Below, piece after piece: positions 47,224-59,491 of a DNA stretch of 64,000 nt. A program made the position numbers and the translations under genes. The DNA comes from a virus. The stretch lies in IMG/VR virus record IMGVR_UViG_3300027906_000009, positions 27,315 to 91,314 of that record. The stretch is one strand, 5' to 3'. Within the stretch, counting starts at the first letter, position 1; each line of letters opens with the position of its first letter. A model generated the notes under the pieces. The model saw nothing but the letters and a program-made list of their open reading frames with translations, was not told the origin of the DNA and did not search any database.

Positions 47224-48138
47224 TTATTTAAAGTTAATAGCTTTACCGAAGATAGGTTCCAATTGTTGCAAATACATTGGTAACCATTTTTTTCTAATAT
47301 CTATAATATTTTTTGAGTTTTCAGCGCAATTAAATTTTTCAAAAATATCATATAATTCGTCATGTGTGCACACAACGGACCCAAATTTTGAAGCGGTTGA
47401 GGCCCGGGCATCGTGTGCTATTGTTATACTTGGGATTCCGAAGGTGGCTGCCCAGCCTGAGCCGTGGATTCTAGTTCCCACAACTAAATCAAAATTCTTA
47501 TAAAACTCAAAATAGTCATTCATATCGGATGAATATAAAACATCCCAACCATTGTTTATTGCCTCTGCATAATCCACATAACTATGGCATATAACTGTAG
47601 GGTTATATTTATTTATAAACTCCTTACTTATTCTATTAACTTGTTCTGCCGGCGAACAGATATACCTAGAGTTTGCCTGGTAGCAGAAAGCTATTTTTTC
47701 TTTTTTTGTTACAATACTGGGGTCCATTTCAGTAACTGCATATATAGAAGGGCAAGGCGCTACGATCGAATTGGGAATCATACCAGCAGCGTTGTCTCTT
47801 GCAAATGCGATTGTGGCTGAAGAGTAAGGCCGGTCGCTTCGATATGGAAGGCCTCCGACACCTATATAAGAAAAAGGGACCCCATGAGATGATATAAGTC
47901 TGTATAAGTCGTCGTTAGGGCTTTCATAATATTCTGGTGAGCCTGCAAATACTATATGATCGATAATTTCATCTCCCACACCAAAGGTGTAACTGTTGTC
48001 TCCTTTCCTGTCCGGTTTAAAGTGTGGGTGTCTATTAAACATAATAAAGGTATGTGCTCCTAATAAGTTTCTGACCCCTTTTAGTATTAATTCGTCTCCC
48101 GGGTTCCACTGTTTTGTCGTTGAGAATGCTATTTTCAT
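47224..48138 (-). CDS. Polysaccharide pyruvyltransferase family protein
   Basis: WNPGDELI, GVG, ARD, PCP and VVGTRIHG...A..FGIPSI. Confidence 0.8.
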   Translation of the reverse strand: MKIAFSTTKQWNPGDELILKGVRNLLGAHTFIMFNRHPHFKPDRKGDNSYTFGVGDEIIDHIVFAGSPEYYESPNDDLYRLISSHGVPFSYIGVGGLPYRSDRPYSSATIAFARDNAAGMIPNSIVAPCPSIYAVTEMDPSIVTKKEKIAFCYQANSRYICSPAEQVNRISKEFINKYNPTVICHSYVDYAEAINNGWDVLYSSDMNDYFEFYKNFDLVVGTRIHGSGWAATFGIPSITIAHDARASTASKFGSVVCTHDELYDIFEKFNCAENSKNIIDIRKKWLPMYLQQLEPIFGKAINFK

Positions 48139-48155
48139 GTTATATTACTCCTCTC

Positions 48156-48914
48156 TTAGCTTCCAGTATACCATAAATTTCCATATAATTGTGTTCTTTG
48201 TAATTTGTAGTGATCATAATAAATTTTAGCTGCATGTAATGTTCTGTCATTCGGAGAAAAAATTACAATGCTGTTATTTTCATTAATAGATTTTTCTTCT
48301 TTGCACCAATCCCAAGGAACCCACTCTCTTTGGGTGTTGGGATTTTTTTCCCACTCTTCATATTTCCATTCATATTCTTTTTTGAAGGACATTATTTTTG
48401 TATGTATATCCAAAAGCTCTGCTCCGGGCTTGTTGATATTCAATAAATATGTCATAGCTTTTTCTCTCATATCCGGATGTGGACTTATTTGATATCTAGA
48501 TAAATACTTTCTAATATCCGTATGTAACCTTGTTGGGCGCGAAAGATTAAACTTGCTTTTCAAACAATTATGAAATTTATCACTTCTAAAAAAATTCAAC
48601 AAATTTATAAGAATCGGGTTTTCTGGCTTATCTAGTCTGAATCCCATCCCTAGAATACCTTTTTTATCTTTCACCATTTCGAGATATTCATTTAAATTAG
48701 TGGTCACACCTGCGCCGGCGAAGGGGGTATATTGCTTTTGTATAAGGTTTTGAAATAACTCCAAGTCGTTCTCACACTCATCAAAGTGGAGTTGCTTGTC
48801 CTGCAAAAGATTACTAAGGTGTTCTTCTTTTAATAAATCTTTTATTTCTAAGTGTTTGTATGGTTTTTCTATTATTTTTTCATTATTTATTTTTTCTAAA
48901 ATATATTCAAACAT
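48156..48914 (-). CDS. 2OG-Fe(II) oxygenase (prolyl-hydroxylase-like)
   Basis: PYKH N-terminal motif, ISPHPD (HxD), K..TYLL, N..VIF...TLHA and distal R. Confidence 0.8.
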   Translation of the reverse strand: MFEYILEKINNEKIIEKPYKHLEIKDLLKEEHLSNLLQDKQLHFDECENDLELFQNLIQKQYTPFAGAGVTTNLNEYLEMVKDKKGILGMGFRLDKPENPILINLLNFFRSDKFHNCLKSKFNLSRPTRLHTDIRKYLSRYQISPHPDMREKAMTYLLNINKPGAELLDIHTKIMSFKKEYEWKYEEWEKNPNTQREWVPWDWCKEEKSINENNSIVIFSPNDRTLHAAKIYYDHYKLQRTQLYGNLWYTGS

Positions 48915-48917
48915 TTT

Positions 48918-49289
48918 TTAATCTCCTTTAATTATGCGATATGAATCTTCATCCATGTGTGTGGTCGAAAATTCAAATAGTTCTGTATCTTCTATAGCTA
49001 TCATTTGATGTCTAAGGCCTCGATAAACATGAAAATTATCCCCACGAGTGAGGATTTTCTCCTTTGCGTTCAATATATCATCTGAATCTGAATATTTGAC
49101 CAGGATTCTTCCAGACTGTATATAAAACACTTCATCCTTTAATATGTGATAATGCCAAGAACACCTCTTCCCCTTTACAAAATAAAGAAGTTTTCCACAA
49201 TACTCTTCATTATTTACTATCCATTTCTCAAAACCCCAGCCTTTTGGGACAAACTTCATCTGTATATTTATACTGTTTTCAGATTTCAT
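48918..49289 (-). CDS. Cupin sugar isomerase-like protein (mannose-6-P or lyxose isomerase type)
   Basis: VPKGWG.E...YCGK.L...CSWHYH..KDE.FY...G...H...EFST.H...DSYR. Confidence 0.8.
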   Translation of the reverse strand: MKSENSINIQMKFVPKGWGFEKWIVNNEEYCGKLLYFVKGKRCSWHYHILKDEVFYIQSGRILVKYSDSDDILNAKEKILTRGDNFHVYRGLRHQMIAIEDTELFEFSTTHMDEDSYRIIKGD

Positions 49290-49620
49290 TACTTATCTCG
49301 GAAGTAAAAAATAGAATGTCTTGACACCCTTTGTCATCCACATAAATGTCGCCTTGTGGCTTTCCTAAAAACAATCTATGATATTTCAGGCCCCACAGAT
49401 CAAGTTGATTCTTAGTCAATTCATAAAATTCTTTATTTGCGGCGGAGGCGTCATTGTTGTGGCGACCCATACCTCTCGCAGTTAAGAAAAAGATTTGATT
49501 TCCTGACTCGAAAAGGCTGTTAATTAATGCTATTCTTTCTGGAAAAGGTTCCGCTTTTTCATACTCTCCATTTGTAATTGTACAAATTGTACCATCTATA
49601 TCAAATACATAATTTTTCAA
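49279..49620 (-). CDS. HAD-superfamily phosphatase (capsule-biosynthesis type)
   Basis: FDIDGTIC, TARG and GKP..DIYVDDK. Confidence 0.85.
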   Translation of the reverse strand: MKNYVFDIDGTICTITNGEYEKAEPFPERIALINSLFESGNQIFFLTARGMGRHNNDASAANKEFYELTKNQLDLWGLKYHRLFLGKPQGDIYVDDKGCQDILFFTSEISNEI

Positions 49621-50407
49621 TATCTTTCTCCGTTAAAGAATATGTGCCACTTTTTTGTACAACATAAGAAGCTGCTTTATTTGCCTTAATTATTGCTTCT
49701 TCTAATTGTCTGTTGTTTTTCACATAATTAATAGCAAGCACAGACAAAAAAGTATCTCCGGCTCCAGATACATCGAAAACGTCAACGCGGGTTACAGGGT
49801 ATGTTTTCTTTTCCCACTTTGCACCTGCTGGGCCGAGGGTTACAACTAAATGCTGTGAAGGGAAATTGCACTCTAATTCTTTCTCTTCTCTCTCATTTAA
49901 CTTTACTATTGCGCCTTCATAACAACTAATATCTCTTTTTTTAGAGTCAACAAAGACGGGAATATCACACAATAAACAAAATTTACATATTACTTTTGCT
50001 GCCTGCTCTGTGATGAAGCCTTTTTCATAATCAGAAATTATCACTAAATCATAAGAAGATATTGAATTTATTTCTGAGCAATTTAAATTTACTTGATTTA
50101 ATTTCGAACTCTCTCCTGTATCAAGCCTCATTATGTGCTGGCCTGAGTCTAAGTCTACAAACCTTTCTTTAGTTATCTGTTCTTCGTTTGTAACTATATC
50201 AACGTCTACGACACTATTATAAGCTAATAAATTATTGTATATGTTCAAAGCCATTCCGCCCATAGTATCTGTATATTTATGAGACAAGACTGGAACTGGA
50301 GCTTCTGGGGATATCCTGTTGCAATGTCCATAGTGGAATTTATCTCTGCAAGAATCACCTATTAGTAATACTTTCAATCGTTTTTGTTGTTGAATATCCG
50401 TTAACAT
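49601..50407 (-). CDS. hldA: D-glycero-D-manno-heptose-7-phosphate kinase (HldE/RfaE domain I, PfkB fold)
   Basis: IGD..RD...G...RISPEAPVPV, GG.A.N, ISDY.KG, VDSK and DVSGAGDTF. Confidence 0.9.
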   Translation of the reverse strand: MLTDIQQQKRLKVLLIGDSCRDKFHYGHCNRISPEAPVPVLSHKYTDTMGGMALNIYNNLLAYNSVVDVDIVTNEEQITKERFVDLDSGQHIMRLDTGESSKLNQVNLNCSEINSISSYDLVIISDYEKGFITEQAAKVICKFCLLCDIPVFVDSKKRDISCYEGAIVKLNEREEKELECNFPSQHLVVTLGPAGAKWEKKTYPVTRVDVFDVSGAGDTFLSVLAINYVKNNRQLEEAIIKANKAASYVVQKSGTYSLTEKDIEKLCI

Positions 50408-50753
50408 AATTAAAAATTTTCACCTTTGCATGATTTCGGCCGGCCACCTCTTCTTCATTATAGTCCCCTCCCTTAACGATAAAGTCTGGTTTTAAAGATT
50501 CTATTAATTTAAGCGGCTCTAGTTCGTTAAATATAACCACTTTATCCACATATTTTAAACTTTCTAATAAAAATTTTCTATCACTTTGTTTATTTATCGG
50601 ACGTGACGATCCTTTTAACTTTAGAACTGATTCATCAGAGTTTAGACCTACAACCACTTGGCCTTCGCCGGCTAAATCTCTGCAGTATTGCAAAAGCAAA
50701 ACATGGGCAGAATGTAGTATATCAAAACATCCATTTGTGAAAACTACATTCAT
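50355..50753 (-). CDS. hldC: Heptose-1-phosphate nucleotidyltransferase (HldE/RfaE domain II)
   Basis: VFTNGCFDILHSAH, VVGLNSD.SV..LKG..RPIN, VKGGDY and GYSTT. Confidence 0.9.
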   Translation of the reverse strand: MNVVFTNGCFDILHSAHVLLLQYCRDLAGEGQVVVGLNSDESVLKLKGSSRPINKQSDRKFLLESLKYVDKVVIFNELEPLKLIESLKPDFIVKGGDYNEEEVAGRNHAKVKIFNYVNGYSTTKTIESITNR

Positions 50754-51616
50754 AATATTTTTTTTATTACTTCCTCATAACCCATAGGTGTCGGGTTCAA
50801 TGATTCATCAATCCAATTATTCTGCAATATATTTCTCATATATCCGCTATAGTGACTTTCTTCTGACCCTAAATATATTTTTTTCTTATTTTGTAAAGAT
50901 GGAATTACTTCTATAAAATTACATAAACTAGAATCTACACAAGATATTGATTCTGATTCGTGTAGAACTTTAAACCAATCATATATTTGATAGTCTGCAA
51001 TCGGCTCGAATACAATTGGGTTCTCAACAGCATTAATGTGACCAGCTAGTGGATGGTTCTTATAAATATGAACGATACTATATTTATCAGAATTATATTT
51101 TTTAATTGCTCTTTCTTTTATTATGGACAATAGCTCATCTTCTTTTTTTTCGTTTCTGTTCCAATTGAAATTCCATCTTTTCTCTAGGGGGACTTCAGCT
51201 AAAGTATATCTCATATCTATCCAATTTCGGTCTTTTTTTCGAAAGCTTTCTATTTTAGATAAATTGGATTTCAAATTGCCGGGAAAACCCCAAGAAATAT
51301 CAAGCAATTTTGCATCGACTAATTGAGCGTACCTTCTAGCGTGCAAATATAGCTTAGCGCTTTTCTGAGCGTTTTCTAAATTCTCAGCATAAGGGTTCCT
51401 CCTATTATATGGATCCTGTAAATAAGAATTTTGTGATAATGATAATCCTGAAAATGTAATACATTTGCTATATGGTATTTCTCTAAAAAAATCTTCAAAT
51501 TCGGAATATACTACCCACTCAACTTCATAGCCTAGGTCCGCATAATATTCTGCTATTGGAGAACATATAATTAGATCTCCGAGTTTTCCGGGCTGCAGCA
51601 AGACAAGTTTTTTCAT
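50750..51616 (-). CDS. GT9-like (heptosyltransferase-like) glycosyltransferase
   Basis: QPGKLGDLIICSP N-terminal motif and C-terminal SCVDSS (compare GT9 xDSG). Coupled to hldC. Confidence 0.6.
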   Translation of the reverse strand: MKKLVLLQPGKLGDLIICSPIAEYYADLGYEVEWVVYSEFEDFFREIPYSKCITFSGLSLSQNSYLQDPYNRRNPYAENLENAQKSAKLYLHARRYAQLVDAKLLDISWGFPGNLKSNLSKIESFRKKDRNWIDMRYTLAEVPLEKRWNFNWNRNEKKEDELLSIIKERAIKKYNSDKYSIVHIYKNHPLAGHINAVENPIVFEPIADYQIYDWFKVLHESESISCVDSSLCNFIEVIPSLQNKKKIYLGSEESHYSGYMRNILQNNWIDESLNPTPMGYEEVIKKIL

Positions 51617-52920
51617 GATATTTTAAATCCAGTTTTTGCTTTGAATTCTTCTAATATAGCTGGTTTATCTTCTGTTGTTGAGCGGAAATGCAAATAATCT
51701 TCTATTACCTCTTTTCTGAAAAGGTTCATAACTTTATCCTCTGTAAAATGTCGTAGGACATGTTCTTGTAATTTTTTTGCTTTCTTTTTATATAAGCCAT
51801 AGTTGCTGTAAACCTTTCTTATTTGATCCTTGAATGAGGACTCTTTTGGATATGCCCATTGAGAATTTTCTTCAATTATATCTTCCCATGCTACGTGATC
51901 TGGTATTTTTGCCAGACTATAATCAACTTCTGCGAAAAAACTCTTTTTTGAAAAAACGTTATCTCTCGGGTCGGAAATCGTCAAAAAATCTAAATGGCCT
52001 GACCAATTAGTCGCGACAACTGGGAGTTGGTTATAAGCTGCTTCAAAGATGGGTAGGCCAAAACCCTCACCGTGCGATGCAGAAACTAAACACTTTACTT
52101 TTTCTAAAGAATATAAAGAGTGTATTTGTTCTTCGGACATATCGCCATGGACCAAATAGATACTACACTTGTAAGTACCCACAGTAGATTCTATAATATT
52201 TTTAATATAATTCTCTGTTTTTTCGAAATCAATAATACTATTTGAGGCACTGCCTGTTTTTAAAATTAGACCAACGTTCTCTTCTTCTCTGAACTCCTCT
52301 ACAAACCATTTGATAGTGTTTTCCAAATTCTTCCTGGGGCCTAGCATGGCTACAGATAAAAAATTAAAATCTGTTTTTAAATTTAAATTGATTTTTTTAT
52401 TTTTAACATCTTTTACCGGATATGGGATTACTGACACTGGGCAGCCACAATCTAATATGTAAGTATCTTTAGAGTGAGGATTCATCATCTTATAACTTGT
52501 ATTGTTAAAACCGAATTTGGCGTGCTCTGAAGGTACTATAATTTTATCTATTTGTGCTGTTGTCTTTTCTAGCCATTTTGGATGGACCCGATCAGTTTCT
52601 ATTCCTGCTGTGATGCAAACTGCGTATGGGGCCTTTTTTACAAATTCATTTGGCAGACCAACTAAAACATGCAAATCACAATGAAACGGTTCGTTAGCCA
52701 ATCTATGAATTTCAAGAGAATCTGAAAAATTTTCTATATCTCTATCTATTTCTGATCTTTCTCTATTCATCTCCCAAGACCATGAAGTTTGTCCCCAGTT
52801 TAAAGGATTCACTAGTAAATCGACTTCTTTACATTCTTTTAATGCGCGATATACAAGTCGCGCATGCTCTCCATATCCAGAATTTGTTAAAATTGGAGCC
52901 TCTAATAAAACTTTTATCAT
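51613..52920 (-). CDS. Glycosyltransferase family 4 (GT-B)
   Basis: SGYG, RKN, EGFGLPIFEA and PVVATNWSGHLDF. Confidence 0.9.
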   Translation of the reverse strand: MIKVLLEAPILTNSGYGEHARLVYRALKECKEVDLLVNPLNWGQTSWSWEMNRERSEIDRDIENFSDSLEIHRLANEPFHCDLHVLVGLPNEFVKKAPYAVCITAGIETDRVHPKWLEKTTAQIDKIIVPSEHAKFGFNNTSYKMMNPHSKDTYILDCGCPVSVIPYPVKDVKNKKINLNLKTDFNFLSVAMLGPRKNLENTIKWFVEEFREEENVGLILKTGSASNSIIDFEKTENYIKNIIESTVGTYKCSIYLVHGDMSEEQIHSLYSLEKVKCLVSASHGEGFGLPIFEAAYNQLPVVATNWSGHLDFLTISDPRDNVFSKKSFFAEVDYSLAKIPDHVAWEDIIEENSQWAYPKESSFKDQIRKVYSNYGLYKKKAKKLQEHVLRHFTEDKVMNLFRKEVIEDYLHFRSTTEDKPAILEEFKAKTGFKIS

Positions 52921-54176
52921 ATTTTTTTAAACCTCCAGTTTTTATATCCCTCTCTTGAAGACCAAGAGCCATATTTTTCCTCAACATGTTGCATGGCTTT
53001 TATCCACAAATCTTTGTATTGTTCAAATCCATAATTTTCCATTACATGTTTTCTGCCTAGTGAGCCTATTTCTTGTCTTTTGGCACTTGATAAATTATGA
53101 ATTTTTTTTAATGCTGCTATGAAATCTTGTTTATTTATCCTATCCTCTCTTATGTATGGCACCTCTTGAGACCCTATGATTGCTTTTGAGCTAGGCTCAA
53201 TACCAATTCCAAACCAATCTGTACCGTTAGTCACTTGTTCCTGTAATCCTCCTGTCATGTTTACAATAATTGGGACCTCGCAAGCTAAAGATTCTAATGT
53301 AGAGAGTCCAAACCCTTCTGCGTCTGAAATGTTGATAGTACAGTCGCATGCGGAATAGATGTTAGATAATGCTTCTGGTGGGAATTTTTCAGTAGAAAAA
53401 AGAACCTGATTGTGACTGGAAAGGTTCAATCGTTCTGCGATGGCATACAAATCTTGACCGTGTGGGTCTTTAGGATCTGTGTGCATCAATAAAGTAGCCT
53501 TGTCGTGCCCCACTTCATCTAAGAATTCTTTAAACCACCATATTAAGGTTCCGGATTGTTTTCTTCTTGCATTTCGGTTATTCCAAAAGAAGACAGTTTT
53601 TTCTTTGTTATCTCCGACAATATTTTTTCTATATTCTAAAACGTCTTTGGAATTTTTATTGTTTTTGAATATATCAGTATTTACAGTATGGGGTATTCTC
53701 ATACAATCAACAGAGGGAGATACATTCCTTACAATATCATCTGTAACTTTACTGATTGTACATACTAGGTCGTTTGAATCATAGAATGATTTATTAAAAT
53801 TGGGGTAAGGATAATTATCCCAGACATGGTAATATACCATGGGGACATTGACTCTAATCTCGTTCTCCATCTCCCATAGCCATATATAAAATCTAGGATC
53901 TGTCATAAACCATAAAATGTCTGGCTTGTAATCTTTCAGAGTTTGCCTTATTATATCTTTATTCCCGTAACCGTCTACTGGCTTGATTACCCAGTCTTCC
54001 AAATAACCCTCCACCATGAATGGTTCATAATTTTCATGCTTTATAGCTCCGGCTAAACACAAAAATTTATACTTTTTGGTAGACAATAAAGCCTCTATCA
54101 TATATTTTGTTTGTGTTCCAACACCAGAAGGCACCAAGGGTGAATCTGATATTACTAATATTTTCTTCTTTTTCAT
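52917..54176 (-). CDS. Glycosyltransferase family 4 (GT-B)
   Basis: SDSP..PSGVG, NRN..RK, EGFGLSTLESLAC..P and TGGL.EQ. Confidence 0.9.
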   Translation of the reverse strand: MKKKKILVISDSPLVPSGVGTQTKYMIEALLSTKKYKFLCLAGAIKHENYEPFMVEGYLEDWVIKPVDGYGNKDIIRQTLKDYKPDILWFMTDPRFYIWLWEMENEIRVNVPMVYYHVWDNYPYPNFNKSFYDSNDLVCTISKVTDDIVRNVSPSVDCMRIPHTVNTDIFKNNKNSKDVLEYRKNIVGDNKEKTVFFWNNRNARRKQSGTLIWWFKEFLDEVGHDKATLLMHTDPKDPHGQDLYAIAERLNLSSHNQVLFSTEKFPPEALSNIYSACDCTINISDAEGFGLSTLESLACEVPIIVNMTGGLQEQVTNGTDWFGIGIEPSSKAIIGSQEVPYIREDRINKQDFIAALKKIHNLSSAKRQEIGSLGRKHVMENYGFEQYKDLWIKAMQHVEEKYGSWSSREGYKNWRFKKI

Positions 54177-55006
54177 GTGCAGTGCTCTGTTTTGTAAAAT
54201 TTACAATACTTACAATTAAGTTTATTTTTAATTGCAGTTTCTCTTTCTATATTTATAACAGCATTTTCTAAAACTTTTAATGCATTTGATGTTTTTTTGG
54301 GGCCCGAAGTTGTTCTCACAACTTCTACCACATTTTTTTTTGCTGTTCTTTTGAGTAATACAAAGTAGGTCTCAATATTCTTGGGCGTGATATTGTGTTT
54401 TTTAGCGAAAAAATTCTTGTAATATGTTAATTGATAATTAATGATCGGGTCGCTTTTTTTATCTCTCGACCATCCCCAAGAACATGTTTTCCAATCTACT
54501 ATATGATATTTGTCATCCGGCGTTTTTAAAACTAAATCTATAAATCCTTTAAATTTTTTATCATATGAATCAAATTCAGTTATTTCTTCCAACAACGGCT
54601 CTTCAATTGCATGTATTTTAAAATCTCCAAAATGTTCTCTCATCTTAGGTAACACATGATCACAAATTGGTTTAGCTTGCTCTACCATCTCTAATACAAG
54701 TTTTTTATTAGTTTTGTGACCGTTTAAAGCAAGAGATTTTATTTCTTCTATAAATTTTTTTTTGAAAATGCTGTATATATTTCCAGTGGATAAAGACTCG
54801 CAAGCTTCGTGAATTGCTGTTCCAAATATAGAATATTCATTACTAGAATAATAAGGTAGCTTATCGACATAAATCAATTTATGTCGATATGAACACTCCT
54901 TCCAATTCTTTAGTTCTGAAAAACTAATCCTCTTTATTTGCTTTTCTTGTTCTTCTAGTTCTTGTCTGTTTTGGCTTTGTTGTTTTTGTTGTTTTTTTAA
55001 TTTCAT
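54173..55006 (-). CDS. PD-(D/E)XK nuclease, AddB/Cas4-like, with four conserved Cys
   Basis: ISFS.L..W..C, FGTAIH, GFIDLV, IVDWKT, QL..Y and CKYC...C. Start uncertain; the nearest ATG is at 55006. Confidence 0.85.
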   Translation of the reverse strand: MKLKKQQKQQSQNRQELEEQEKQIKRISFSELKNWKECSYRHKLIYVDKLPYYSSNEYSIFGTAIHEACESLSTGNIYSIFKKKFIEEIKSLALNGHKTNKKLVLEMVEQAKPICDHVLPKMREHFGDFKIHAIEEPLLEEITEFDSYDKKFKGFIDLVLKTPDDKYHIVDWKTCSWGWSRDKKSDPIINYQLTYYKNFFAKKHNITPKNIETYFVLLKRTAKKNVVEVVRTTSGPKKTSNALKVLENAVINIERETAIKNKLNCKYCKFYKTEHCT

Positions 55007-55229
55007 AGACCCAAGTTCCGGTAGTGGTATAGTTAGAATCACCAACTATATTAGATACAATCTTATCAGGTTTTGAAACTAAAGTCAAGTTATTTTTATA
55101 TTCTTCTGGAATGAGTAATAGAGGATCCAGGCACCATCTTAATCGTTCTTCCGTTGCATATTCTCTCTTTTTGCAAGATATCCTCACTGTTATCTTGTCC
55201 TCTTGTATATCTATTTCTTCTTTAAACAC
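54924..55229 (-). CDS. Hypothetical protein with basic C-terminal tail
   Basis: GTG start with AGGAGG SD. Confidence 0.65.
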   Translation of the reverse strand: MFKEEIDIQEDKITVRISCKKREYATEERLRWCLDPLLLIPEEYKNNLTLVSKPDKIVSNIVGDSNYTTTGTWVYEIKKTTKTTKPKQTRTRRTRKANKED

Positions 55230-55926
55230 TGCTTTCCTCCTGGTTTTTTAATGTGTGTTTTTCTTTTAAAGACAATATTCTCTTTAAAATTTTAAATAAT
55301 AATGGTGAAACCTTTTTTAATCGGCCGATGTCTTCTTTCATAAAAAATGCTTCAAAACCATTTGCAAAATATTCTCTAATTGAAGTTGCGCCGTATGGAG
55401 AATAAAATAAATCAGAGGTGATCATCCTTAGAGAATCGTAACCCACATAGTCATACAAAAACTTATCGAAAGTTTCGTCAAAATTTAAATTAGTGAAGTG
55501 CTTTTTATCTAAATCTAAATCCCTATTCCTACTCAACCTATTATATAATTCAACTCTTTTAGAATAAAATTCTTTTCTTAAAAGTTTGTCTCCATAAATT
55601 TCATTATGAAATATTTCTTCGACAGAATGCGCAAATTCATGAATCACATCATCCACTATATCTTCTTCGTTTTTATGTGTGTTCGAAAGAAAAATGTTTC
55701 CATTTTCATACATAGCCTCATAATCTCTCTCTTTCAGTCTATCAAAATCTCCAATAAAAATATTTTTTACATTCCTTCTTAAATGTTTGGGTAATAGCAG
55801 TAGGGCTCTTCTTATTGCATTTTTTATTGAAATGTTGTTTATTGGTTGATCTCGGACGCTTACTGCAATTCCAAAAATTGAAAAATGATCTTTTGTTTTT
55901 TGAAAGTGTTCTTCTCTGTATTTCAT
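55222..55926 (-). CDS. Zincin-like metalloprotease domain protein
   Basis: VIHEFAHSV (HExxH), then Y...S.REYFA.GF supplying the third ligand (lethal-factor-like arrangement). Confidence 0.7.
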   Translation of the reverse strand: MKYREEHFQKTKDHFSIFGIAVSVRDQPINNISIKNAIRRALLLLPKHLRRNVKNIFIGDFDRLKERDYEAMYENGNIFLSNTHKNEEDIVDDVIHEFAHSVEEIFHNEIYGDKLLRKEFYSKRVELYNRLSRNRDLDLDKKHFTNLNFDETFDKFLYDYVGYDSLRMITSDLFYSPYGATSIREYFANGFEAFFMKEDIGRLKKVSPLLFKILKRILSLKEKHTLKNQEESSV

Positions 55927-57239
55927 AATTTTAAAGCTGCCATTGATGCAACCTTAGATCTTTCTCCTTTTAAGAGAGTTATATGGCCGGTAATTGATTC
56001 TTCTTTTAATCTCTCTACCACGTAGGAAAGGCCGTTGTTGGTAGCATCTATATAGACATTATCTATTTGGTCTATATCTCCTGTTAATATTATCTTAGTG
56101 CCCTCACCCACTCTTGTTAGTACTGTTTTTATTTCATGTTGTGTCATATTCTGAACCTCATCGATAATGATAAATGCATTTGATATCGATCTACCTCTGA
56201 TAAAAGTCATAGCTTCTATTTCTATTTGTCCCTGGTCTATATACATTTCCAAAGTAGCGCGGTCGTCGCCCATCAAATATTGCAAATTATCTTGTATTGG
56301 GGCTAGCCATGGCAACATCTTCTCTTGCATTGTGCCCGGTAAAAAACCTATATCTTTACCTACTGGTTCGACTGGTTTTGTTACTACTATTTTTCTATAG
56401 CTTGATTCCGAAGAGAATGTTTGTTCGAGGCCCGATGCTAGGGCCAACAGAGTCTTTCCAGAGCCGGCTTTACCCACCAGGGTTACTACCGGTACCATAG
56501 GGTCCATAAGAAGCTCTAGAGCGAACTGTTGCTCCTTATTGCGCGGCGCAGTATTCCAGACCTTCTTCGTTGCGCTGATAATTTTTTTCAGTGGAACATT
56601 GTAATTTACAAATCTAGCTAGGGCGGTCTTTTTTTCGTTACTGTTTGATATTAACATAATAAATTGATTTGGAGATAATTGATAGGTGTTTTGGTCTATC
56701 CATATATCCTCGCCTTTATAAAACTTATCTATGTCTTGTTCATCTACTAATATTTCAGCGCGGCCGGTAAAGAGACCTTCTGAATTTTCTACTACCTGCT
56801 CTGCCTGATAATCTTCTGTTAAGAGGCCTAAGGCGTCACATTTTACTCTCATATTTATGTCACGAGAGACAACAACTACTTTTCTGCTTTTTGGCGCTAT
56901 GTCCTGTTCAGATAAGGCAGTAGCAATAATCTGGTTGTCGGAGTCCTCCGTGTCCAAATCATCCGGGAGGCATAGTGGATTATAAGAGCTAACCCTAACT
57001 ATGCCTAAACCCTTTTCTATCCTGACCCCTTTCGATAAACTTCCTTTATCTCTAAGATTATCTAACTTTCTTATTGTTGAGCGCGCTTGTGATCCTACTG
57101 AATCTTGTCTTTTCTTATGTTTATCTATTTCTTCCAACACCTTCAGGGGTATAACAATATCATTATTAGTAAATGAATTTATACAATTAGAGTCTGTTAA
57201 ATAGACACTCGTATCTAAGACATATGTTTTCTTAGCCAA
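55923..57239 (-). CDS. phoH: PIN-PhoH fusion protein (PhoH2/YlaK-like)
   Basis: PIN motifs YVLDTSV, LEEID, DNQII and SRDIN; PhoH motifs RNKEQ, GKAGSGKT, GFLPG, RGRS, IIDEVQN, TRVGE and GD..QID. Confidence 0.92.
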   Translation of the reverse strand: MAKKTYVLDTSVYLTDSNCINSFTNNDIVIPLKVLEEIDKHKKRQDSVGSQARSTIRKLDNLRDKGSLSKGVRIEKGLGIVRVSSYNPLCLPDDLDTEDSDNQIIATALSEQDIAPKSRKVVVVSRDINMRVKCDALGLLTEDYQAEQVVENSEGLFTGRAEILVDEQDIDKFYKGEDIWIDQNTYQLSPNQFIMLISNSNEKKTALARFVNYNVPLKKIISATKKVWNTAPRNKEQQFALELLMDPMVPVVTLVGKAGSGKTLLALASGLEQTFSSESSYRKIVVTKPVEPVGKDIGFLPGTMQEKMLPWLAPIQDNLQYLMGDDRATLEMYIDQGQIEIEAMTFIRGRSISNAFIIIDEVQNMTQHEIKTVLTRVGEGTKIILTGDIDQIDNVYIDATNNGLSYVVERLKEESITGHITLLKGERSKVASMAALKL

Positions 57240-59414: not shown

Positions 59415-59491
59415 TGGTGGGCCCACCTGGACTTGAACCAGGAACCACCGGTTTATGAGACCGACGCTCTAACCAATTGAGCTATGAGCCC
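59415..59491 (-). tRNA. tRNA-Ile2 (anticodon CAT, lysidine substrate), CCA encoded
   Basis: GGGCTCATAGCTCAATTGGTTAGAGCGTCGGT-CTCATAA-ACCGGTGGTTCCTGGTTCAAGTCCAGGTGGGCCC-ACCA forms a full cloverleaf with a paired 1-72 and no initiator features. Lies directly downstream of tilS. Confidence 0.9.

Follow-up and report, generated by a model that had tools for sequence, protein, structure and literature searches.

Results

The DNA analysed here (hereafter the window) is a 64-kb stretch that forms the right-hand part of the 91-kb IMG/VR record IMGVR_UViG_3300027906_000009, with an estimated completeness (CheckV) of about 48%. Within it we studied an island of glycan-related genes that contains a module of four, encoding an HldC-like nucleotidyltransferase, an HldA-like kinase, a very small haloacid dehalogenase (HAD) phosphatase and a cupin, which probably directs the synthesis of ADP-heptose. 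The record carries genes for a gp23-like capsid protein, portal, terminase and sheath and belongs to an uncultured marine myovirus, whose nearest cultured relatives are Flavobacterium phage immuto, Microcystis phage Mel-JY01 and Rhodothermus phage RM378. Since its gp23-like capsid protein is nearest to those of immuto and Mel-JY01, this phage is related to the T4-like cyanophages only distantly. A megablast search with the cluster as query returned zero matches among 50,697 phage records, and relatives were reached by protein searches.

Nearly all genes of the window lie on the minus strand. The island comprises ten tightly packed genes running from position 55045 down to 47224, joined by 4-nt overlaps or separated by very short gaps (Table 1), and a gap of 176 nt upstream of the PD-(D/E)XK nuclease gene marks the start of the coupled run. 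The other nine genes (47224-54176) had been described as co-oriented and mostly overlapping in an earlier reading made from the letters alone (the sequence-only reading), and all of these open reading frames (ORFs) were recovered on the minus strand; neighbours overlap at five of the eight junctions, three times by 4 nt, and are 3-17 nt apart at the remaining three. The family assignments of that reading also stood, with Pfam, PHROGs and NCBIfam agreeing on seven of the nine genes. ORF3 and ORF8, which had no family matches, were folded from alignments of metagenomic homologues and typed from the resulting AlphaFold models by comparison with Foldseek and VIA-align. The structural block said to follow the island is indeed present downstream, in the form of genes for the baseplate and for giant proteins (3117 and 3452 aa), and between it and the island lie small conserved genes, one of which weakly resembles the gp55 late sigma factor.

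Table 1. Genes of the glycan island, in order of transcription (window positions; pLDDT, predicted local distance difference test)
Gene product	Position	Strand	Evidence
PD-(D/E)XK nuclease	54173..55045	-	PF12705, E 1.5e-18; first gene of coupled run
GT4 glycosyltransferase a (GT4a), 419 aa	52917..54176	-	PF00534, E 6e-12; phrog_2170, E 1.5e-24
GT4 glycosyltransferase b (GT4b), 435 aa	51613..52920	-	PF00534, E 1.9e-10; phrog_2170, E 1.4e-22
ORF3, short GT-B glycosyltransferase, candidate heptosyltransferase	50750..51616	-	model pLDDT 88
HldC-like heptose-1-phosphate nucleotidyltransferase, 132 aa	50355..50753	-	TIGR02199, 146 bits; phrog_7878
HldA-like PfkB kinase, shortened, 268 aa	49601..50407	-	TIGR02198, 159 bits; phrog_8133, E 2.5e-79
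Mini-HAD phosphatase, 113 aa	49279..49620	-	TIGR01689 EcbF/BcbF, E 1e-7
Cupin, 123 aa	48918..49289	-	PF07883
ORF8, 2-oxoglutarate (2OG)-Fe(II) oxygenase, 252 aa	48156..48914	-	model pLDDT 96, HxD...H triad
Polysaccharide pyruvyltransferase, 304 aa	47224..48138	-	PF04230, 47.3 bits (cut-off 25.3); CsaB, E 2.7e-5

A constant module in a variable island

We assembled 84 related viral loci from IMG/VR, with the cupin at the centre of 80, and examined them both by BLAST with the window proteins and by de novo clustering. The transferase, HAD and kinase were present in 69, 69 and 66 loci, respectively, according to BLAST, and in 67, 70 and 67 according to clustering. The co-occurrence of the HAD and cupin with hldA and hldC in relatives, which had been set beforehand as a test of the sequence-only reading, is thus strong. 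The genes flanking these four vary by locus, and include HldD, GDP-mannose dehydratase, aminotransferases, FkbM methyltransferases and a carbamoyltransferase, as well as GT25 and GT11 glycosyltransferases, NeuB, UDP-glucose dehydrogenase and a split transketolase. The four genes form a constant module within a hypervariable glycan island, matching descriptions of the lipopolysaccharide (LPS) genes in the host-recognition islands of cyanomyoviruses and pelagimyoviruses (PMC7029224). The split transketolase-like pair, in which the thiamine diphosphate- and pyrimidine-binding halves are encoded by separate genes (e.g. L011:4428-5550), occurs in about 15 of the glycan islands and suggests that branched or higher-carbon sugar chemistry may take place there.

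Homologues of the kinase are found in many Kyanoviridae. Cyanophage P-SSM2 carries the module in an order identical to that of the window (transferase-kinase-HAD-cupin, gp309-312) with a short-chain dehydrogenase/reductase (SDR) gene adjoining, and its cupin and kinase are 62% and 41% identical, respectively, to those of the window. The cupin gene itself is abundant: clustering at 90% identity gives 4473 clusters, and IMG/VR holds over 545 of its loci.

In L066, L067, L071, L025, L051 and about ten further loci the highly conserved cupin stands by itself, the kinase, transferase and HAD all being absent within 10 kb. Five cupin-only fragments contained neither an HldA-like kinase nor a PF00483 transferase; their completeness of 11-22% makes this result uninformative as to whether such loci might use a GDP-heptose route. 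The cupin-only loci hint that the cupin may act in another setting or have a further role.

The kinase, the nucleotidyltransferase and the sugar

The kinase finds its top model in TIGR02198 (rfaE_dom_I; 159 bits, E = 1.4e-46), followed by ribokinase at 45 bits, and its top PDB match is HldA (4e84, E = 1e-17), with which its RISPEAPVPV and SGAGDT segments align. Both the N-terminal lid stretch of HldA and the PfkB-type GAGD ATP site are thereby preserved. The transferase, similarly, is best matched by TIGR02199 (rfaE_dom_II; 146 bits, E = 5.9e-43) and by the structure of HldC (5x9q, E = 2.7e-23), and combines an HxGH-type core (FDILHSAH) with a C-terminal YVNGYSTT. The latter fits the motif (F/L)XXGXSTT, which is reported to define heptose nucleotidyltransferases (HENase), with an arginine at the fifth place marking promiscuity towards nucleoside triphosphates (NTPs) (PMC11573728). 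In the window transferase and five phage relatives this place is taken by tyrosine or histidine, arginine being absent; the tyrosine predicts use of ATP and not of a broad range of NTPs.

The neighbourhood of the module in relatives points in the same direction. Directly upstream of the transferase, loci L005 and L024 encode SDRs scoring 287 and 298 bits against the HldD model TIGR02197 (cut-off 274.6), and the SDR of P-SSM2 (gp313) scores 210 bits, below that cut-off. With HldD orthologues inside the module of relatives, the product of the module would be ADP-D,D-heptose, and since the two SDRs exceed the HldD cut-off, the sugar is most likely a heptose. In the 91-kb record itself, about 48% complete, no match to HldD or another SDR was found, so that this phage would use the D,D-heptose form as donor. 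An SDR cluster present in 64 of the 84 loci (cluster 4) was considered as a fifth core gene and set aside, since it mixes several SDR paralogues of which only some are HldD.

The mini-HAD and the cupin

The phosphatase begins with DIDGT and belongs with the capsule-type EcbF/BcbF family (TIGR01689), its closest structures being 9iqw (E = 2.5e-9) and 1xpj (E = 2.2e-5). Against the HAD-IIIA model TIGR01662 it reaches E = 7e-5 and 22.9 bits, below the cut-off of 44.6. Its gene lies immediately upstream of the cupin in most of the 70 loci that have it. In the phage route to nucleoside diphosphate (NDP)-arabinose, a 1xpj-like HAD strips the terminal phosphate of arabinose-1,5-bisphosphate (PMC13326640). 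That reaction is the exact analogue of the GmhB step, and the mini-HAD may by analogy and context be considered a candidate heptose-1,7-bisphosphate 7-phosphatase. The PHROG label for this family (phrog_1238, "phosphoheptose isomerase") is misleading, as the family is the mini-HAD (P-SSM2 gp311; also L001:8740-9421, together with gp312).

In the cupin, H46, H48, E53 and H94 are invariant, forming a 3His-1Glu metal site, as are several lysines and arginines. Among its specific but weak Pfam matches, Lyx_isomer is the most frequent, obtained for 22 of 23 members (best E = 2.5e-4, all below cut-off), and the cupin profile weakly matches the PDB entries 2y0o, 7nzo, 5avp and 7zvm. Its only recurrent specific matches are to the D-lyxose/mannose and mannose-6-phosphate isomerase cupins, all of them sub-threshold. 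Cupins of these types convert a ketose to a manno-aldose, the same chemistry as that of GmhA. GmhA is likewise reported to be a metal-dependent isomerase (PMC11056994). Since the cupin fold differs from the SIS fold, the protein could be an analogue of GmhA but not a member of its family, and its context leads us to propose it as a putative non-orthologous sedoheptulose-7-phosphate isomerase. Our literature search found no paper tying a cupin to heptose synthesis, the study of Tang et al. 2024 being represented in it by commentaries. Here too the PHROG label ("cysteine dioxygenase", phrog_7851, the family of P-SSM2 gp312) is misleading, and both labels have spread through many cyanophage records.

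The sequence-only reading had noted that GmhA, a canonical GmhB and HldD are missing from the window, and had left room for gmhA or gmhB elsewhere in the genome. We found none of the three in the whole 91-kb record, about 48% complete: there is no SIS-fold GmhA (PF13580, SIS_2) and no HAD-IIIA (GmhB-type) phosphatase. The search for SIS-fold GmhA was also negative in four large relatives, one of them 100% complete and syntenic, and in P-SSM2.

Cupin fusions in cellular genomes

The strongest evidence for these roles of the cupin and HAD comes from fusions and gene neighbourhoods in cellular genomes. Five fusion architectures were found: cupin-kinase, kinase-cupin, cupin-kinase-transferase, kinase-transferase-cupin and GT9-cupin-kinase. 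A member of the Peribacteraceae, within the candidate phyla radiation (CPR), encodes a cupin-kinase fusion whose kinase part scores 330 bits on the HldA model, and the next gene codes for a GmhB-type HAD fused to HldC. Kinase-cupin fusions are represented by L119 and P0213, and the same reverse order occurs in a metagenome-assembled genome (MAG) of the Methanosarcinales. Three-domain proteins join cupin, HldA and HldC (P0220, 606 aa), HldA, HldC and cupin (P0219, 587 aa), or GT9, cupin and HldA (P0214, 809 aa). In Woesearchaeota, separate genes for cupin, HldA and HldC stand in a row, the HldA reaching 367 bits and thus exceeding the cut-off of 345.

When the CPR fusion was searched against 1.84 billion representative sequences, the 150 top matches included at least some 26 clusters (50% identity) that were fusion-like as judged by length and matched range, and the cupin domains of the fusions found in this search are 41-45% identical to the phage cupin. 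The CPR and Methanosarcinales genomes that carry the fusion, all of them incomplete MAGs, yielded no full-length GmhA. Partial SIS matches were seen in the CPR genomes only, in ORFs of about 600 aa that probably represent GlmS, and the Methanosarcinales genome had none. The two-gene form of the pathway in CPR (L126:7875-10264) is preceded by a homologue of GDP-mannose dehydratase.

A proposed route to ADP-heptose and its alternatives

Taken together, we consider it probable, from sequence and gene context, that the conserved four-gene core makes ADP-heptose, with the cupin and mini-HAD replacing GmhA and GmhB. According to this model, the cupin would isomerise a ketose phosphate to heptose-7-phosphate (the GmhA step), the PfkB kinase would add the anomeric phosphate, as its homology to HldA predicts, the 113-aa HAD would take off the 7-phosphate (the GmhB step), and the small nucleotidyltransferase, by homology to HldC, would add AMP. 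The soluble GT-B enzyme ORF3 would then most likely transfer the heptose, the two GT4 enzymes might add further sugars, and the pyruvyltransferase and 2OG oxygenase might decorate the product or its acceptor, the whole route presumably being cytoplasmic and active during infection. The earlier suggestion that the HAD stands in for GmhB, and that the cupin acts as an isomerase or epimerase, accordingly fits with the co-occurrence counts, the fusions, the HldD genes of relatives and the missing GmhA, all of which argue for it. The suggestion of a self-contained route to a heptose-containing, pyruvylated glycan fared less evenly: the heptose module is supported, but the nine genes are not one conserved unit.

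Several observations weigh against an ADP-heptose pathway with such replacements. With 159 bits against 345 (TIGR02198) for the kinase and 146 against 181.5 (TIGR02199) for the transferase, neither enzyme reaches its equivalog cut-off, and in length the kinase falls short of HldA by about 50 residues. Every match of the cupin to sugar-isomerase families lies below the curated threshold, and in about 15 of the 84 viral loci neither kinase nor transferase accompanies the cupin within 10 kb. Absence of GmhA from the phage is weak evidence, as the enzyme may come from the host, and a deltaproteobacterium that carries the cupin also has two full-length GmhA-like genes. The candidate heptosyltransferase ORF3 is structurally only marginally closer to GT9 than to GT1 enzymes (about 10.5 on the VIA Z-scale), with near-ties to plant NDH-PSI subunits (Z 11.7 and 11.1). 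Finally, among the phages of loci L009-L088 the cupin is 75-88% identical while the kinases and transferases are only 35-60% identical, a difference that the model does not account for and that may reflect tighter constraint on the cupin or its later spread.

Some of these points bear on the alternative that the host provides GmhA and that the cupin is a later epimerase or tailoring enzyme acting on the heptose phosphate or on ADP-heptose. Cupins do serve as sugar-nucleotide epimerases and ketoisomerases, the deltaproteobacterium combines the cupin with GmhA-like genes, and a conservation so far above that of its partners is not obviously expected of a simple isomerase. We nevertheless judge this alternative unlikely. 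The cupin occurs in 20 loci without any SDR and hence does not depend on a 4-keto intermediate; it is fused directly to either end of the kinase and stands where an isomerase would be expected in the cupin-kinase-transferase proteins; the CPR and archaeal genomes with fusions lack a full-length GmhA; and its weak family matches are to aldose-ketose isomerases and not to RmlC or FdtA.

It is highly improbable, in our view, that the module instead activates another sugar, either a pentose or mannose by a mutase-free route through mannose-1,6-bisphosphate, in which the cupin would be a phosphomannose isomerase, the HAD would yield mannose-1-phosphate and the transferase an NDP-hexose. The isomerase-kinase-phosphatase-transferase logic and the HAD type are shared with the NDP-arabinofuranose route (PMC13326640), some cupin clusters bear weak MannoseP_isomer labels, and the kinase and transferase score below their equivalog cut-offs, as noted; yet the module of relatives includes HldD orthologues above the curated cut-off, the kinase keeps RISPEAPVPV and the transferase GxSTT, and the fusion partners of the cupin are HldA, HldC, a GmhB-type HAD and GT9.

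Glycosyltransferases and accessory genes

GT4a has BshA as its top NCBIfam match and no transmembrane segment, and its nearest solved relative by sequence is the chlorovirus protein B736L (PDB 3oy2, E = 5e-8). The nuclease gene overlaps that of GT4a by 4 nt, and these two genes and that of GT4b always occur together, in 14 (BLAST) or 15 (de novo clustering) of the 84 loci. This trio sometimes lies on the opposite side of the heptose module (L040 and L042).

ORF3 (288 aa) has no match in Pfam (including Glyco_transf_9), PHROG or NCBIfam, and its AlphaFold model adopts the GT-B fold. The claim that it is GT9-like stands in that GT9 enzymes are among its top VIA rows (3tov, Z 12.0; WaaF, 11.5; TibC, 10.8; WaaC, 10.5), although GT1 rows are nearly tied. 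Its N-terminus carries a GKLGD...P motif as in GT9, common to ORF3 and the GT9 domain of the three-domain protein P0214. ORF3 is therefore treated here as a candidate heptosyltransferase that resembles GT9.

ORF8 is predicted to be a double-stranded beta-helix 2OG-Fe(II) oxygenase, with a triad (H146, D148 and H227) that is invariant in 42 sequences. Its model is closest to PolD (VIA Z 17.3) and PasI (17.0), whose substrates are high-carbon sugar nucleoside phosphates, and next to ribosomal and EF-Tu prolyl hydroxylases (OGFOD1, 15.7; P4H, 13.7). A role as hydroxylase of collagen-like fibres, as for mimivirus L230, was rejected, as no large structural protein of the window contains G-X-Y runs. 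BLAST with the window proteins detected no homologue of ORF8 or of the pyruvyltransferase in any of the 84 loci, these two being local accessory genes; with the ORF3 family in only 11 of the loci (de novo clustering), a "pyruvylated heptoglycan" can be proposed for this phage only locally.

Upstream of the island, syntenic relatives keep both a small metallopeptidase gene (window 55222-55926), with weak matches to M90 and to an anthrax-lethal-factor-like zinc site, and a gene for a PhoH ATPase with an N-terminal PIN domain (55923-57239). A single tRNA gene with the anticodon CAT (59415-59491) adjoins an ORF of 200 aa.

The acceptor of the glycan

Every protein of the island is predicted to be soluble, and the island in the window encodes no membrane protein and no flippase, polymerase, ligase or polyprenyl-phosphate transferase. 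Assembly would therefore be cytoplasmic and take place on a pre-existing acceptor. The sequence-only reading had left the virion, host LPS and phage DNA as possible targets; the first two remain candidates, and DNA is now the least likely. Indirect hints place virion structural proteins slightly ahead of host envelope glycoconjugates: the island sits just before the late-gene block, and the nearest solved relative of GT4a is a chlorovirus glycosyltransferase. TibC, moreover, transfers ADP-heptose to proteins in the cytoplasm. We regard structural proteins as a plausible acceptor, if short of a probable one.

More tentatively, the glycan may be placed on the host envelope (LPS core, O-antigen, capsule or S-layer), where it could block superinfection or keep progeny phages from adsorbing to debris. 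The islands of cyanophages and pelagimyophages have been read in this way (PMC7029224; PMC9602691); GT9, GT4, GT25, GT11 and pyruvyltransferase are typical of envelope polysaccharide loci, and the island is hypervariable in the manner of O-antigen loci. The absence of membrane and export functions from the island, however, speaks against the envelope, and remodelling it within a lytic cycle would need the export machinery of the host.

Least probable by far is heptosylation of phage DNA, as in glycan hypermodification of 5-hydroxymethylcytosine (5hmC), with the nuclease degrading unmodified host DNA. A phage cluster with HAD/kinase, cytidylyltransferase and GT-B genes is reported to produce mono- and di-heptosyl-5hmC, and some DNA glycosyltransferases resemble BshA and MshA (bioRxiv 10.1101/2023.12.21.572611), BshA being also the top NCBIfam match of GT4a, to whose gene that of the nuclease is coupled. 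However, neither the record nor the 100%-complete syntenic relative contains a ThyA-family hydroxymethylase (PF00303) or, in a search that had no positive control, a Tet/JBP oxygenase (PF12851), and their absence from a complete relative argues against DNA. ORF8, for its part, resembles PolD, PasI and prolyl hydroxylases and not TET. We know of no pyruvylation of a DNA glycan, which also counts against this target.

Discussion

The module itself is known: its annotation in P-SSM2 dates from 2005, and pelagimyophages have been noted to carry it. What is new here is the evidence from fusions, from HldD orthologues and from counts of co-occurrence, used to test whether a cupin takes the place of GmhA. 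If this holds, the phage "LPS gene" set would amount to a complete, host-independent ADP-heptose pathway, and the cupin, which few small genes in marine viral metagenomes equal in spread and conservation, would represent a non-orthologous displacement extending to CPR bacteria and archaea. A bolder proposal, which we hold to be speculative and rather unlikely as a whole, is that the cupin defines a new class of sedoheptulose-7-phosphate isomerases, spread across marine myoviruses, CPR, and DPANN and other archaea, and that the soluble GT9-like enzyme O-heptosylates the phage's own virion proteins, such as the giant baseplate and fibre proteins whose genes lie downstream. Were virion heptosylation of this TibC/AAH-like kind to occur, hypervariable glycan coats might be found on the particles of ocean phages in general. 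Because heptose is a rare sugar, it could be used as a chemical tracer to test the target of such islands directly in cultured carriers (P-SSM2, S-T4 and S-CAM1).

Compared with the canonical bacterial ADP-heptose pathway, the proposed route has the same four-step logic, presumably from sedoheptulose-7-phosphate to ADP-heptose, with a kinase and a transferase from the same families and, in relatives, the same epimerase. It differs in having a 123-aa cupin in place of the SIS-fold GmhA, a capless 113-aa HAD of the EcbF/1xpj type in place of the HAD-IIIA GmhB, and a shortened kinase, and in the lack of HldD in this phage. Viral HldE-type enzymes have been reported to make ADP-heptose in vitro (Tang et al. 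2024, as summarised in PMC11461863); according to that summary, the cross-kingdom survey found no phosphatase in viruses and used homology to look for the isomerase. Both gaps would be closed by the mini-HAD and the cupin.

The phage route to NDP-arabinofuranose, used for arabinosyl-5-hydroxycytosine DNA (AfhE/AfhF; DLP3 gp81-83), follows the same logic of isomerase, anomeric kinase, 1xpj-like HAD and nucleotidyltransferase, but with an SIS-type isomerase, an APH-like kinase, a transferase of another fold, a pentose, and DNA as the acceptor. With TibC/AAH and with WaaC and WaaF (GT9), ORF3 has in common the GT-B fold and the N-terminal GD...P motif, whereas it is shorter, has no Pfam GT9 match and is structurally almost as close to GT1. 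The closest parallel in layout is the "LPS gene" cluster of P-SSM2 (gp309-313) and the host-recognition island of pelagimyophages, likewise a variable glycan island near tail or baseplate genes, although the T4-like cyanophages are only distantly related to the phage studied here.

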